A stretch of DNA of 64,000 nt from Octopus vulgaris (lineage: Eukaryota). Position 1 is the stretch's first letter, and each line of letters begins with the position of its first letter. Position numbers and translations under genes: made by a program. Below the pieces are notes generated by a model. It did not search any database and had not been told where the DNA came from. It saw nothing but the letters and a program-made list of their open reading frames with translations. The stretch spans positions 61,070,001 through 61,134,000 of the forward strand of contig OX597821.1 of the NCBI GenBank assembly GCA_951406725.2, given 5' to 3'. Positions 4,410 to 49,617 of the stretch are shown piece by piece.

Positions 4410-5555
4410 GCTGCTACAACAACAGCAGCAACACGAATAATAATTATGGTAATATATTTCCTATTAATCACAAGAGCTTAAACATTAAAAAATAACAAAG
4501 AAAGTTCAGACGGTAAGGCGGGGTGGATAAGACAAAGAGTGAAAAGCGTTATGCAATATATACGTGGGCGAATTAAAAATATAAAAAAGTACAAATATTT
4601 ACAAAAGCGCCATAAAGTACACAATAATTAAAATAAGATATTTATATAAAAATTAAACATCTATTTGTATTTATCAGCGTATTCCATGTTCACGAGAACG
4701 CTTCCACTGGTGGTTATTCTTGTTTCGTTCATGAGAGGAAATTGTAAAATAAAAATAAAAATCTTCCATGAGGAACTTTAGGATAATGATGAGTAAATTT
4801 TCTCGGCGGTTCTGCTTCGCAATTGATGAAATTCCACCTTGCATTTTTTAATCCATATTTTGGGGATTTGGACTCAGCATATAGAGATATCCGGAAGGAG
4901 TGCTAAAAGGAATTTTGTTTTACGTCTATCCATCGACTTTTATTTTAACGAACGCATTGATTAATGCAGTTCTAGTCACGCTATGTCTCCAAAATATGAT
5001 GGCATCGTCACGACTAGTATGACTGTCCTCATAGCTTTGATCGGACAAGACTGATCAGCAATATGATTAATAACTCGTCTGTAGTCTTCGAAACAAACGT
5101 AAACCACTATGTTAAAACTGGAAACAAGACAAAATTGCTCAGCGAAGCCAGAGAGATGTGGCAAGTAAACGTTGCACATGTTTGGAGCCAGCTTTCATTT
5201 TTCAAGGCCTTTCTATGGTCGCTCTTTCATTGAAGATTTGCTCAGTTTTGTCGAGATTTTAACTTCATGTGCAACATAAAATAAAATGCATGTTATAACT
5301 CGGGTATTATATTTAATCCCTGGCTTGTGAGTTTTTCCTTATAAATCCAATCTCAGTGATGTGTGTTTGAATTAGTGTTTCACATTGGGTAAAACAAAAG
5401 TCATACTATAGATATAATTTAGACAATCTAATTAATAAATTAATTTACTCTCAATAGTTTGTGAGTACTGTGACTTGTCATATCTAATGGTGGTCAAATA
5501 TATATTCATACATTAGTTGATTTTTGTTCTTTGTTGCTCAGCCCCACTTTTCTCT

Positions 5556-16368: not shown

Positions 16369-16530
16369 ATTATATATATATTCTCTCCCAATTTCGCAGT
16401 GTGTGTATGTGCATAAATAAATGTATTTACGGTAATGTATCCCATTGCTTAGGTTATAATATTTCATTAATATATGTTTTGATGAACGTCAGATCTGATA
16501 ACAAGATTGCTTTACACCATTCAAGGCCTC

Positions 16531-19500
16531 AGAGATCAAAGAGGGGTGCCGACAGAGATCAAAGGGGGTGCCGACAGAGATCAAAGAGGGGTGCCGACAG
16601 AGGTTAAAAAGGGTGCCGACAGAGATCAAAGTGGGTGCCGACAGAGATCAAAGAGGGGTGCTGACAAAGATCAAAGGGGGTGCCGACAGAGATCAAAGAG
16701 GGGTGTCGACAGAGATCAAAGAGGGGTGCCGACAGATATCAAAGGGGGTGCCGACAGAGATCAAAGAGGGGTGCCGACAGAGATCAAAGAGGGTGCCGAC
16801 AGAGATCAAAGAGGGTGCCGACAGATATCAAAGGGGGTGTACAGAGATCAAAGGGGTGCCGACAGAGATCAAAGAGGGGTGCCGACAGAGATCAAAGAGG
16901 GATGCCGACAGAGATCAAAGAGGGGTGCCGACAGAGATCAAAGAGGGATGCACAGATATCAAAGGGGGTGCCGACAGAGCTCATAGGGAGTGCCGACAGA
17001 GATCAAAGAGGGGTGCCGACAGAGATCAAAGAGGGTGCCGAAAGAGATCAAAGAGGGGTATCGACAGAGATAAAAGAGGGGTACCGACAGAGATCAAAGA
17101 GGGTACCGACAGAGATCAATAGGGGTGCCGACAGAAATCAAAGAGAGGTGCCGACAGAGATCAAAGAGGGGTGCCGACAGAGATCAAAGGGGGTGCCGAC
17201 AGAGACCAAAGAGAATGCCGACAGAGATCAAAGAGGGGTGCCGATAGAGATCAAAAAGGGTGCCGACAGAGACCAAAGGGGGTGCCGAAAGAGATCAAAG
17301 AGGGGTACCGGCAGAGATCAATGGGGGTGCCGACAGAAATCAAAGAGAGGTGCCGACAGAGATCAAAGAGGGGTGCCGACAGAGATCAAAGTGGGTGCCG
17401 ACAGAGACCAAAGAGAGTGCCGACAGAGATCAAAGAGGGGTGCCGACAGAGATCAAAAAGGGTGCCGACAGAGATCAAAGGGGGTGCCGACAGAGATCAA
17501 AGAGGGGTGCTGACAGAGATCAAAGAGGGGTGCCGACAGAGATCAAAGAGGGGTGCTGACAGAGATCAAAGAGGGTACCGACAGAGATCAAAGAGGGGTA
17601 TCGACAGAGATCAATGGGGGTGCCGACAGAAATCAATGAGAGGTGCCGACAGAGATCAAAGAGGGGTGCCGACAGAGATCAATGGGTGTGCCGACAGAGA
17701 TCAAAGAGGGTTGCCGACAGAGATCAATTGGGGTGCCGACAGAAATCAAAGAGAGGTGCCGACAGAGATCAAAGAGGGTACCGACAGAGATCAAAGAGGG
17801 GTACCGACAGAGATCAATGGGGGTGCAGACATAAAGCAATGAGAGGTGCCGACAGAGATCAAAGAGGGGTGTCGACAGAGATCAAAGGGGGTGTCGGCAG
17901 AGACCAAACAGGGTGCTGACAGAGATCAAAGAGGGATACCGACAGAGATAAAAGAGGGTGCCGACAAAGATCAAAGAGGGGTACCGACAGAGATCAAAGG
18001 GGGTGCCGACAGATATCAAAGAGGGGTACCTACAGAGATAAAAGAGGATGCCGACAGAGATCAAAGAGGGGTGCCGAAAGAGATCAAAAAGGGGTGCCGA
18101 CAGAGATCAAAGAGGGATGCCGACAGAAATCAAAGAGGGTGCCGACAGAGATCAATTGGAGTGCCGGCAGAAATCAAAGAGATGTGCCGACAGAGAGCAA
18201 AGGGGTGCCGACAGATATCAAAGGGGGTGCCGACAGAGAACAAAGAGGGTGCCGACAGATATCAAAGAGGGGTGCTGATAGAGATCAAAGGGCGTGCCGC
18301 CAGAGATCAAAGAGGGGTGCCGCCAGAGATCAAAGAGGGGTGCCGACAGGGATCAAAGAGGGGTGCCGACAGAGATCAAAGAGGGGTGCCGACAGAGATC
18401 AAAGGGGGTGCCGACAGAGATCAAAGGGGGTGCCGACAGAGATCAAAGAGGGGTGCCGACAGAGATCAAAGAGGGATGCACAGAGATCAAAGGGAGTGCC
18501 GACAGAGATCAAAGGGGGTGCCGATAGAGATCAAAGAGGCGTGCCGACAGAGATCAAAGAGGGGTGCCGATAGAGATCAAAGAAGGGTGCCGACAAGGAT
18601 CAAAGAGGGTGCCGACAGAGATCAATGGGGTGCTGACAGAGATGAAAGGGGGTGCCAACAGAGATCAAAGAGGGGTGCCGACAGAGATCAAAGGGGGTGC
18701 CGACATAGATCAAAGAGGGGTACCGACAGAGATCAAAGGGTGTGCCGACAGATACCAAAGAGGGGTACTTACAGAGATAAAAGAGGGTGCCGACAGAGAT
18801 CAAAGAGGGGTGCCGACAGAGATCAAAGGGGGTGCCGACAGAGATCAAAGAGGGTGCCGACAGAGATCAAAGATGGTGCCGACAGAAATCAAAGAGGGGT
18901 GCCGACAGAGATCAAAGGGTGTGCCGACAGAGATCAAAGGGGGTGCCGACAGAGACCAAAGAGGGTGCCGACATAGATCAAAGAGGGGTGCCGACAGATA
19001 TCAAAGGGGGTGTTGACAGAGATCAAAGAGGGTGCCGACAGAGATCAAAAAGGGGTGTCAACAGAGATCAAAGGGGTGCCGACAGAGATCAAAGAGGGGT
19101 GCCGACAGAAATCAAAGACGGGTGCCGACAGAGATCAAAGGGGGTGTACAGAGATCAAAGGGGGTGCCGACAGAGATCAAAGAGGGGTACCGACAGAGAT
19201 CAAAGAGGAGTACCGACAGAGATCAAAGAGGGATGCCGACAGAGATCAAAGAGGGGTGTCGACAGAGATCAAAGGGGGATGCACAGAGATCAAAGGGGGT
19301 GCCGACAGAGATCAAAGTGTGTGCCCACTGAGATCAAAGAGGGGTGCCGAAAGAGATCAAAGAGGGGTGCCGATAGAGATCAAAGAAGGGTGCCGACAAG
19401 GATCAAAGAGGGTGCCGACAGAGATCAATGGGGTGCCGACAGAGATCAAAGGGGGGTGCCGACAGAGATCAAAGTGGGGTGCCGACAGAGATCAAAGGGG

Positions 19501-19784
19501 GTTCCGACAGAGATCAAAGAGGGGTGCCGGGAGAGACCAAAGTGTTGCCAAAAGAGGTCAAAGAGGGGTGCCGACAGAGATCAAAGGAGGTACCGACAGA
19601 GATCAAAGGGGATGCCGACATAGTTCAAAGAGGGGTGCCGACAGAGATCAAAGAGGGGTGCCGACAGAGATCAAAGGAGGGTGCCGATAGAGATCAAAGA
19701 GGGGTGTCGAGAGATATCAAAGGGGGTGTCGACAGAGATCAAAGAGTGTGCCGAAAAAGATCCAAGAGGGTGCCGAAAGAGATC
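16531..19784 (+). repeat. Minisatellite, consensus AGAGATCAAAGAGGGGTGCCGAC (23 bp, with frequent 22-bp variants), roughly 145 units
   Basis: Head-to-tail units with no unique spacers and a strongly purine-rich plus strand. Unit count estimated from length. Confidence 0.97.
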
Positions 19785-19898
19785 TTCCCTTACAAACCCG
19801 AGCAACGCCGGGCGATACTGCTAGTGTATAATATACATGAATACATACCTACGGTCATATGTATGTATGTGTGTATATATGTATGTATGCATGTATGT

Positions 19899-20335
19899 AT
19901 GTGGCGGTCCTATAAAAGACGGTGTTACTGTTGATTAAGCCCAAGGAAAACATCTTTTCCAGCTGGCCATCGACACAGTCTGTGTCCGTATAGCTTTTGC
20001 AAGGGAGGTCATCGCCCCCATCTCCAACTTTACTTGATACTCACAGACCATAGTTTCTGGTTGGTTACCTGTCCTCAGTGTGAGATAATCATTGGCTGTT
20101 GATGAAATCTTTCGCCACACGAAAACTCTATGTATTCTTTAAGCGACACACAGTCGCTTATCTCGTATAGAGAAAAACGATTTATTTTTAATCTCTCAGA
20201 GTGAGGTGTAGAGTAACTGTACCCAATAGTAAAGTTTATTTATCAACAAAATGTGGCGGTCCTATAAAGGGCGATGTTACTGTTGTTTAAGCCCCAGGAA
20301 AGCATCTTCTCCAGCTGGCTATCAACGACACACAG
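19899..20335 (-). mobile_element. Diverged copy of the ~350-bp hammerhead-containing tandem unit (putative non-LTR retrozyme), ~1.25 units
   Basis: ATGTGGCGGTCCTATAAA recurs at 19899 and 20251 (period 352). The reverse complement aligns by eye over the whole unit with 48069-48698. Confidence 0.8.
20035..20091 (-). ncRNA. Type I hammerhead ribozyme (canonical core, decayed stem II)
   Basis: Minus strand UGAU-UAU-CUCACA CUGAGGA CAGGUAACCAACCA GAAAC UAUG GUC UGUGAG-U-AUCA. Stem I is a perfect 6-bp CUCACA/UGUGAG, followed by the CUGANGA and GAAA boxes and a GUC triplet. Confidence 0.8.
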
Positions 20336-21258
20336 CATTCGCAGAGCATAGTTACGATTTATGAATATCTGGGTAATGGACTCAACACACTTCCACTACG
20401 CTACTCTGCTCAACTTCAGATCTACATATACATACACACATACATACATAAAATCATACATACATACATACAATCATACATATATACATATATGTGTGTG
20501 TGTCTTCGTGGTGCTTGTTTGTGTAATACATACCTATGTAGTACATACTTGTGTGTAGAACATACCTATAACATACAATCACAAATAAATACACTTCCAC
20601 ATAAAAAAGACCATAACAAGTGTACAAATGAGCTAAAAATGGCAGTAATGTGAAATAATGTAACAGTTTGTGATTAAGGTATTAACTGAATCTAATAACA
20701 AAGCTATCCACCTTAGACGTCTCGTCTTACATTACGTTACGTTTATTTCTTAGCAGTTTTATTATCTTATATTTTTTATCTTGATGAAGACAGACAGCTA
20801 ATTCGTCAAATTCGATAAAGTTTGCCCCCTTTAACACTTTAAATAAAACTCTGTCTGACAAAGTAAAACGATAAAAAAGCTATATAAATTTCGTATGTAT
20901 AAAACGAAACAGGAATTGACGAAAAGATTTAATAGAATTTATTTTATGTTAGGTATCAAAACAACAGTTCGTCCAATTTCTCGTTATCCGTTGAGTGTGA
21001 AAAAATAAAATCTAAATAAAAAATATAAAAAGACAAATAAAAAAAAGAAGCATTATCAATTCTAATCTTTCCTATGTTGAAATTTTAGGAATTAAACATT
21101 AGCCAAGATGAAGTTCAATTTTTATGTTATAAGAGTGAAATGCAAAATCCTGGTATTTATTTCCTATTTCTCTTTTCATCTAAAAAAATTTAATTATGTC
21201 TCAGTCAACTTTTATCAAAATTGCTCCATCGATTCTCGAAAAGAAACACACACACACA

Positions 21259-47470: not shown

Positions 47471-48085
47471 AAGATATGTAAATTTATATAACACATACAT
47501 ATGTGTATATGTTTATATAAATAATTCACGCTGCTGTAATCTTATGAAAGCTACGCAATTAACAGTGAAGAAATCATTGACTACTATTTTCACTACTTTG
47601 CCAGAGAAAATTCCTGAACCATCCTCTTCAGTTTTGGTGCTAACGACAGAAATTAGTCCTGTAATTATCTATCCGTGAAGAACGGTTTACAATAGAGAAT
47701 TCCAAATCAAAAGCTTTACTCCGAGAAAAAAAATTCTTATTATCATTTCCTGAAACACTAAATACGGGTGTAGTGTAATTTGTATTGGTCTGCTGATGAT
47801 ACCAAAAGTTAATTTAACCATTCTGAGTTTCCCTCTGCAGTATAAGTGCAGTGTGGTCAAATTTATAGTTTACTATTTGTTTTAGGTTGATATATGTAAA
47901 AATAGTAGTTCTGATAAGACTGGACAACAGTTATATAGTGAAAGAAGTGTGAATTAACATATTTGGTATTGTATATTAGCCACTACAAAGGAACAAAATG
48001 TTGACTTAGCGTTAGGAAGGAGAACAAGATATTTTAGAACTTTAACAGCGTTTGGTTTATTGTCACCCCCCTTTCATCGTAATCT

Positions 48086-48146
48086 GGTGATTACCGCCCG
48101 TTGACAAGAGGCAACAACCTCGAAACTGCAGTCCGTGCGTATCACT
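48086..48146 (+). ncRNA. Type I hammerhead ribozyme, U3-A8 core variant
   Basis: GUGAU-UAC-CGCCCG UUGACAA GAGG-CAACAA-CCUC GAAAC-UGCA-GUC CGUGCG-U-AUCAC. Stems I, II and III all pair. Predicted cleavage is after 48133. Confidence 0.88.
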
Positions 48147-48435
48147 TAGGCTTACGAGAAAGGGATGGCCTCCCTTTGCAAATACCATAAGGGCACAGAT
48201 AGTGTGCCTATAGCCAGCTGGAGACGATGGTCTCCTGGGGCTAAAAGCTACAGTACCCCCCTTTGCGGTTAGCCATATTGAGATGGCTATTATACTTTAC
48301 ATTGTCGAGCGGTTATTGTTTACATCTCGTTCAGAGATTTAATAATGCTTGCAGACAGTTTTTTCGAAATCAGTGACGGAAGTTACTAGAAAAACACATA
48401 TATTTGCATACAGGCTTTCCCTTTCATCGTAATCC

Positions 48436-48496
48436 GGTGATTACCGCCCGTTGATAAGAGGCAACAACCTCGAAACTGCAGTCCGTGCGTATCACT
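48436..48496 (+). ncRNA. Type I hammerhead ribozyme, U3-A8 core variant (second copy)
   Basis: Identical to the first except the core reads UUGAUAA, a change at the free N7 position. Predicted cleavage is after 48483. Confidence 0.88.
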
Positions 48497-49617
48497 TAGG
48501 CTTACGAGAAAGGGATGGCCTCCCTTTGCAAATACCATAAGGGCACAGATAGTGTGCCTAAAGCCAGCTGGAGACGATGATCTCCTGGGGCTAAAAGCTA
48601 CAGTAACCCCCCTATGTGGTTAGCCATATTGAGATGGCTATTATACTTTACATTGTCGAGCGGTTACTGTTTACATCTCGTTCAGAGATTTAATAATGAT
48701 TTTTTCTTTGTTTATCTCAAAATACAAGTTAAAAAGGTATACTGATTAACATTCCTCAAATATTTGATTAAGCATTAAGCAACAAATAACTAGAATATCT
48801 ATGTACATCAAATTGGATTAGAATGACTTTCCTTAGCATCTCAATATTTACTGCGTTGATGCCGCCAAAATGACGTTCGTAGTTTAATAAGAAAATACAT
48901 TAATTTTTGTTTAAGATTTCAGTTCAATGTGTGAGTGATTATATTAGTGTATCAAGTGATTGAACGATTTAGTAGGTGGATTAGGAAGATAAAACCAATA
49001 CTTAGTCATTAAGCATCTACAGTTTATATACTGTTGTTATTAAAGAAATCAGTTCTGTTTAGAAGAGAGCAGTATGATAAATTAGATGTGCGTTCATTCT
49101 GACGTCTAGGTCAGGATGCAATTATATTAATATGACATTTACATATATGCAAGTGAAATACGTGTGCAAAGCGAGAGTTCATACAAATAATGAATAATAA
49201 TGTAAACAAAAAGAAGGGTAGACATCTACATACATACATTACACATATACACAAACATATATAGGTTATCACATACATATAGGCTATCATTTATTTATAC
49301 GCACATGTTCTATTTAATATTCACATGCATAATTGCTGTTGTTTATCCCCAAATGAATCATGATTGACCAAACATAGGATGAAATATATTTACACCGTTA
49401 CCATTTATTATATTTCTGAAGGTATCAATGAATACATTATCTCCAAGATAGTGGGGGGGGGGGGGTGATGTGAAGGAGGAAGATTTGTCATCTCTATCTA
49501 ACAGATCAACTAACAATTCTACATGACTTCTACAATCAATATTAATGTCTTTATAAAGACCGGAAAGTTGAAAGATGTATGCACAATCATTTGAATCGGA
49601 ATTCCAGTTATATAAAT

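Follow-up and report, generated by a model that had tools for sequence, protein, structure and literature searches.

The interval at positions 19899-20335 of the analysed window (64,000 nucleotides of the Octopus vulgaris genome) is, with a probability of about 0.8 as judged from its sequence, an insertion of a non-coding 350-bp hammerhead repeat of the animal retrozyme kind, which a Penelope-like element (PLE) likely wrote into the genome with its reverse transcriptase and GIY-YIG endonuclease. The locus itself is a dead copy and the interest lies in the family to which it belongs. The features of this locus and of a companion copy on the opposite strand are listed below in window coordinates.

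19899..20335, minus strand: one arm of the retrozyme-like repeat, belonging to subfamily A and 1.24 units of 352 bp in length
20335-20255, 20254-19903, minus strand: partial upstream pass and full pass of the arm, followed by 4 nt (ACAT) common to the flank
20035..20091, minus strand: type I hammerhead motif of the arm, recognized from the sequence, no Rfam match
20103..20161, minus strand: putative internal snRNA-type promoter, decayed
20339..20410, minus strand: degenerate copy of a tRNA-Met gene in the orientation of the arm, whose 5' end is 3 nt away (18.8 bits, below the gathering score of 29)
19858..19902, no strand: (TATG)n microsatellite adjoining the arm at its 3' end
48069..48701, plus strand: companion locus of subfamily B; its one arm comprises 1.8 units and stops at the long end of the family (b282)
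48088..48144, plus strand: hammerhead 1 of the companion, U3-A8 core variant (UUGACAA)
48438..48494, plus strand: hammerhead 2 of the companion (UUGAUAA)

The original prediction described a repeat with a period of 352 bp, and such a period is indeed present: positions 19899-19994 pair with 20251-20347 at 81% identity over 97 nt, with a 76-nt core reaching 88%. The homology to the opposite-strand copy, claimed for the full unit and for 48069-48698, was recovered by pairwise search (65% identity over 411 nt to 48069-48701, E 1e-37, the whole unit being spanned). Positions along the unit are expressed on a ruler drawn on the companion monomer, where b1 corresponds to 48069. On this ruler the locus runs on its minus strand from b132 through b350 and b1 to about b208, and the companion from b1 through b350 to b282. 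The two copies thus start at different points of the unit, as had been noticed, and the difference that was taken for circular permutation amounts to 5' truncation combined with a different and eroded 3' end, since 19899-20335 stops about 25 nt before the short end of the family, inside an (ACAT)n tract, and 48069-48701 stops at the long end. The view that 19899-20335 is the older of the two also holds, because its passes have diverged more from the column majority of their subfamily (7.5% and 10.6%, subfamily A median 9.2%) than those of the companion (2.1% and 1.1%, subfamily B median 3.3%), which are 97% identical to each other. Rare variants common to the two passes amount to 0/8. No target duplication, inverted arm or fixed end was found at the locus itself. 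The locus is an aged, 5'-truncated and end-eroded copy. Contigs from three sequencing runs, carrying three organism codes, cover it together with its flank. As regards the surroundings, a 23-bp minisatellite of about 145 copies occupies positions 16530-19784 of the window and ends 115 bp from the arm. The stretch 20338-20415 was considered as an inverted arm and rejected, its sequence being tRNA-Met-like; related tRNA-Met genes are found in tandem with a 175-bp period at another locus (L243).

The hammerhead that had been predicted, with its CUGAGGA core, 6-bp stem I, UAU/U internal loop and UGAU/AUCA distal pairing, is present on the minus strand at 20091-20035 and reads UGAU-UAU-CUCACA / CUGAGGA / ... 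/ GAAA-CUAUGG-UC / UGUGAG-U-AUCA. Stem I retains 6/6 pairs in addition to the distal UGAU/AUCA, the core CUGAGGA lies at 20078-20072, the GAAA is conserved and the GUC site places the predicted cleavage after 20046. The stem III hexamer CUAUGG is no longer a perfect palindrome, and stem II retains 2/5 pairs, so that cleavage is predicted to be absent in this copy. A single hammerhead is carried by the locus; at least two consecutive complete hammerheads, by which Li et al. define 'active' elements, are found in the companion and in the array described below. Searches against Rfam returned no hammerhead in 19899-20335 at E<=1, no match in the whole 64-kb window at gathering score and, at E<=0.01, no hammerhead in three family loci of 3-8 kb scanned whole; in the companion only the second motif was scored, as an HH9 match at 48433-48505 with 34.6 bits against a gathering threshold of 52. 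As the family loci that were missed include the young array, Rfam is a weak test for this hammerhead.

The alignment of 26 natural motifs shows 91% of the cells paired and two-sided changes in 9/18 pairs (the core pair, C3-G8 in subfamily A and U3-A8 in subfamily B, two stem I pairs, and stem III), this covariation being mostly one split between two subfamilies, so that the 26 motifs do not amount to 26 independent observations. The stem III hexamer is perfectly palindromic in 66/104 copies and occurs as several different sequences. A palindromic stem III is the layout of hammerheads that cut as dimers, and the U3-A8 core variant has already been described, both in PMC4209133. In subfamily A, the basal pair of stem II is a C.A mismatch in 25/35 parsed copies, above a GGGU/ACCC stem, which on sequence grounds calls cleavage into question even for the founders of this subfamily. 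When folded at minimum energy, the 73-nt motifs do no better than shuffled sequences (z ~0). Circular folds of five natural monomers are stabler than 25 shuffles (z -2.1 for 19899-20335, -5.8 for the companion), a property that is not strand-specific, as the antisense strands are likewise stabler than shuffles.

Upstream of the hammerhead, the unit may contain an internal promoter. The U2 loci of this genome carry the 6-mer ATCAGT 57-61 nt before their ATCG start in 11/12 cases. The same 6-mer, with at most one mismatch, occurs in 46/49 B-type and 19/27 A-type copies, nearly always 56-60 nt before TTTC/ATC at b8. Its counterpart in 19899-20335 is ATAAGC at -58, two mismatches away from ATCAGT, with the putative start TTTC/ATC at 20103. 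An snRNA-type promoter inside the unit is suggested by this arrangement, although a single 6-mer at constant spacing is a hint and no proof. No snRNA 3' box was seen by eye near the fixed ends described below. With its broken stem II, decayed promoter 6-mer and single hammerhead, the copy is predicted to be inactive.

A 17-nt pattern common to the two window copies was searched in the entire genome (2.8 Gb, 227 contigs). It gave 4,018 exact matches, a lower bound that counts units rather than loci, and its reversed control gave 0. A sample of 159 loci was then reduced to 120 distinct places, of which 36 were chosen for full-length likeness, 58 through a short internal query and 26 in order along contig 1; about 90 of the 120 were picked by likeness to the window copies. 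Three groups were distinguished, namely subfamily A (median 9.2% from the column majority), subfamily B (3.3%) and a third, more distant subfamily accounting for the 20/120 places that display no arm at 78% identity. This third subfamily (L167-L186, contig 1 sample) possesses its own versions of both fixed ends and dominates the unbiased sample. The GC content of the units is 41-45%, and copies are found both in tandem and dispersed. The end map is without an LTR pair, and an LTR/PBS/PPT layout is judged absent from this map. A young array of about ten 355-bp B-type units, whose neighbours are 98-100% alike, was found elsewhere in the genome (L103:2260-5880, G000:C4:13620759-13624379); all of its hammerheads are intact and it terminates at the short end. 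A Tx1-like LINE family (L099:4546-5678, L217-L241) was also observed in the unit at a single fixed site, which follows b22 and lies just upstream of the hammerhead. The junction is common to 25/25 loci, 22/25 of which have matches to the unit profile, and the copy in L099 displays a duplication of some 15 bp. From L098:2369 onward, this LINE has frames with zinc knuckles and frames of endonuclease-like and RT-like type.

The original prediction also proposed a tabulation of start and end points along the unit. The 5' ends are scattered over the 120 places, as expected there, but the 3' ends lie at two fixed sites about 50 nt apart. Using the profile method, 150/206 arms have their 3' ends within b228-245 or b274-297, which together represent 12% of the unit; the in-order sample of contig 1, with loci anchored on a motif at about b140-156, places 40/49 3' ends in the same two windows. 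When close natural references are used, 67/152 arms end within one 15-nt window, the maximum of 1000 uniform runs being 20 (p 0.001). Subfamilies A and B have homologous short ends (b234 = m29), with the long end situated further on by 47 nt in B or about 58 nt in A. No clustering of 5' ends was detected in subfamily B (best window 9/85, p 0.61) or in subfamily A (7/55, p 0.56, after removal of 12 reference-edge arms). A number of artefacts were removed beforehand. The 5' piles at b317 and b131 and the 3' pile at b121-130 are edges of the profile, a subfamily A 5' pile at b183-192 is the start of the reference (the 12/67 arms concerned were dropped) and six 'tail-in' pairs were overlapping self-complementary matches. 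Three loci duplicating the array were excluded, as were two reference loci in the close-reference end count.

Where two arms are present, they point outwards and nearly always combine one end of each type: 33/34 classifiable pairs are long+short, one is long+long and none is short+short, 24 further inverted pairs having an unclassified end by the profile method. A second method yielded 25 long+short pairs, no long+long, no short+short and 27 unclassified. Target duplications of 9-16 bp flank 12/40 inverted loci, where shuffled pairs give a mean of 0.2 and a maximum of 1, and 5/62 single-arm loci (shuffled: mean 0.4, max 3). A dinucleotide-type repeat follows 39/106 fixed ends against a background of 10%, the flanks being of (AT)n type. 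Arms exceed 365 nt in 49/152 cases, one array reaching about ten units.

This architecture corresponds to that of PLE insertions. The marks reported for PLE insertions are 5' truncation, partial tandems, an inverted copy, a one-sided tail and a bias towards microsatellites (10.1101/2021.04.23.441226). The octopus family shows variable 5' truncation, partial tandems and the microsatellite bias and, at the family level, an inverted copy adjacent at the 5' end and a tail on one end only. Inverted arms and target duplications are predicted by Penelope-type integration and not by plain rolling copying of a circle. Coding PLEs do reside in the same genome, with a 781-aa frame matching RVT_1 and GIY-YIG and a CxxxxCxxC linker before GIY-YIG, as in the Neptune/Nematis type. 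Their terminal repeat contains a minimal hammerhead with the U3-A8 core of subfamily B. Inspected by eye, their 3' ends are short in 20/26 cases and follow a tail of about 40 nt in 6/26, all in (AT)n-type repeats, and an inverted PLE locus (L073) displays one short and one long end. The young Neptune-type family (L091-L096, L105; e.g. L094:244-5460) was noted for its many 781-aa frames and an upstream frame; its terminal repeats are 504 bp long and identical, and its hammerhead is minimal, with U3-A8. A second PLE family (L104:2321-3086 and 4718-5483) is represented by a 5'-truncated copy with 766-bp perfect inverted arms. Among 56 distinct GIY-YIG loci, a small sample of 6136 candidates, no coding PLE employs the unit as its terminal repeat; the unit profile is found in 3/56, each time as a separate insertion across a microsatellite. 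The likeness between the unit and PLE 3' ends is at shuffle level (score 36 against 34.9 +/- 4.5). No RT + GIY-YIG frame was found between unit repeats in the 120 places by profile matches, frames being listed for the first 60 loci. As the unit has no homology to the sampled PLE repeats, it is the architecture alone that points to a PLE partner.

The nature of the template can be approached from the position of the arms relative to the predicted cleavage site. The fixed 3' sites are located 170-225 nt downstream of it; the site is traversed by 109/152 arms (twice by 8 of these), without an accumulation of 5' ends (8/152 against about 7 expected). The template was therefore not a cut linear monomer. 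In subfamily B, the passes of one arm have 23/114 rare variants in common and inverted arms 37/222, against 502/36,078 between loci. The signal has faded in subfamily A, where the corresponding values are 8/184, 34/433 and 1,252/59,470. The two arms of a locus and its repeated passes go back to one template lineage. A circle would account for this in a simple way and fits the data, but an uncut homogeneous multimer would leave equal traces. No sequence set recorded as RNA was listed as containing the unit; it is covered by contigs whose runs are only presumed to be RNA, and these cannot show expression. The proposed mechanism can be briefly summarized as follows. The unit would be transcribed from its internal snRNA-type promoter, and hammerheads paired through their palindromic stem III would cut the transcript into monomers, which would be ligated into circles. 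The PLE enzyme would then nick both strands of the target, each nick priming cDNA synthesis at one fixed site of the circle, and copying would proceed for a variable length, often for more than one round. In its full form this model is tentative and is held at somewhat less than even odds: a 350-nt RNA circle with its own snRNA-type promoter would be cut and closed by dimeric hammerheads and repeatedly copied by a Neptune-type enzyme from two fixed internal starts simultaneously, one per nicked strand, without detectable sequence likeness to the RNA of that enzyme, and the subfamilies would record a core switch from C3-G8 to U3-A8 towards the form found in coding PLEs.

The main competitor of this model retains the PLE machinery and replaces the circle by a linear, uncut multi-unit transcript, or by jumps of the reverse transcriptase between linear molecules, the circle becoming unnecessary and the hammerhead largely a passenger. 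It is a possible, if somewhat doubtful, reading that accounts equally well for every arm pattern. It would suit the wide spread of subfamily A in spite of the C.A mismatch in 25 of the 35 parsed copies, as well as the cleavage observed in only 1/9 frog elements tested by Li et al. (10.64898/2026.07.22.740005). Against a passenger hammerhead stand a core and stems I and III that were kept through two-sided changes between the subfamilies, and a stem III remaining palindromic in several different hexamers (66/104 copies). The sharing of rare variants at young loci (20% between passes and 17% between arms, 1.4% between loci) is what would be expected if each insertion re-copies one monomer, and circles have been demonstrated for the retrozymes of coral, mussel and axolotl (PMC7229834).

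Rolling reverse transcription of a circle from arbitrary starts by any reverse transcriptase, leaving freely permuted copies, was the mechanism originally envisaged. The dispersed arms of more than unit length, the read-through at the cleavage site and the scattered 5' ends stand in its favour and this part of the proposal survives; free permutation does not, being contradicted by the fixed 3' ends, homologous in both subfamilies (67/152 arms inside a single 15-nt window, p 0.001). The inverted second arm and the target duplication found at many loci are not predicted by plain rolling copying, and the long+short rule is left unexplained, which makes this mechanism very improbable. It is also unlikely that the copies are merely terminal repeats (pLTR stumps) of an unsampled coding PLE family, devoid of an independent life. 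Most PLE insertions are indeed 5'-truncated stumps (10.1101/2021.04.23.441226, 10.64898/2026.07.22.740005) and inverted stumps would have an equal appearance. The units of the octopus family, however, abut directly, up to about ten in number and 98-100% alike, with no coding sequence between them. A PLE frame between direct unit repeats was found in 0/120 places (frames listed for the first 60 loci), and the full-type hammerhead of the unit, with its bulged stem I, differs from the minimal one of coding PLEs. The least credible alternative is a tRNA-headed SINE with the tRNA-Met-like sequence 20410-20339 as head and the unit as body. This sequence, 79% identical to a tRNA-Met called by ARAGORN, is co-oriented with the arm, 3 nt away from it, and contigs from three runs span the junction. 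Such a stretch nevertheless adjoins the unit at 1/120 places, and the unit was found beside 0/8 other matches to it. The gene-like 5' flank (GTTG) and the lack of CCA, together with this single occurrence, make a neighbouring gene copy likelier than capture of a mature tRNA or the head of a SINE. A retrozyme-type unit likely written by PLE enzymes is retained as the main reading.

At the level of sequence features, the octopus family is a member of the animal non-LTR retrozymes, a known kind of element whose link to PLEs has already been proposed in print. It shares with the elements described in coral, mussel and axolotl (PMC7229834) non-coding repeats of 150-450 bp with one type I hammerhead per unit, a GC content below 50%, tandem and dispersed copies, target duplications of more than 4 bp and a stable predicted circular fold. 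The differences are that cleavage, expression and circles were established experimentally in those animals, the octopus family being known here from sequence, and that the paired fixed 3' ends, inverted arms and internal snRNA-type promoter were not found among the features given in the accessible text of PMC7229834. The words 'octopus' and 'cephalopod' have 0 occurrences in the main text of that paper, whose supplement may list cephalopod repeats. In search listings of the published literature, no paper had retrozymes or hammerheads of octopus as its subject, and none dealt with the end structure of retrozyme insertions.

PLEs were named as the likely mobilizer of animal retrozymes by Cervera and de la Pena (2020, PMC7229834), and Li, Clavereau and Pollet (bioRxiv 10.64898/2026.07.22.740005) propose that the non-LTR retrozymes of vertebrates descend, as non-autonomous derivatives, from PLEs and are mobilized by PLE enzymes. 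The vertebrate elements resemble the octopus family in occurring as monomers, dimers and multimers and in co-occurring with PLEs. The evidence of Li et al. consists of this co-occurrence and of pLTR homology in Xenopus; no pLTR homology was found for the octopus unit, and the link is provided by the insertion architecture, for which the available part of the preprint includes no analysis, nor a mollusc in its sampling. Mobilization of animal retrozymes by PLEs is thus proposed and not demonstrated, and the origin of the tandem and inverted structures and tails of PLEs is still undefined according to Craig et al. (10.1101/2021.04.23.441226). With two starts mapped on a 350-nt non-coding substrate, and with a young coding PLE residing alongside it in this genome, both questions become testable in vitro. 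If a circle is indeed copied by a Neptune-type enzyme, the loci would be a natural record of the unsolved Penelope mechanism. The family also resembles the EN+ Neptune-type PLEs, with which it has in common 5' truncation, partial tandems, an inverted 5' copy, a tail on one end and a microsatellite bias (10.1101/2021.04.23.441226), as well as a hammerhead within the repeat and the U3-A8 core variant (Cervera and de la Pena 2014, PMC4209133). Unlike these elements, the octopus unit encodes no reverse transcriptase or endonuclease, the whole element being one 350-bp repeat, with a tail of 47-60 nt instead of 30-40 nt and a full-size instead of a minimal hammerhead.
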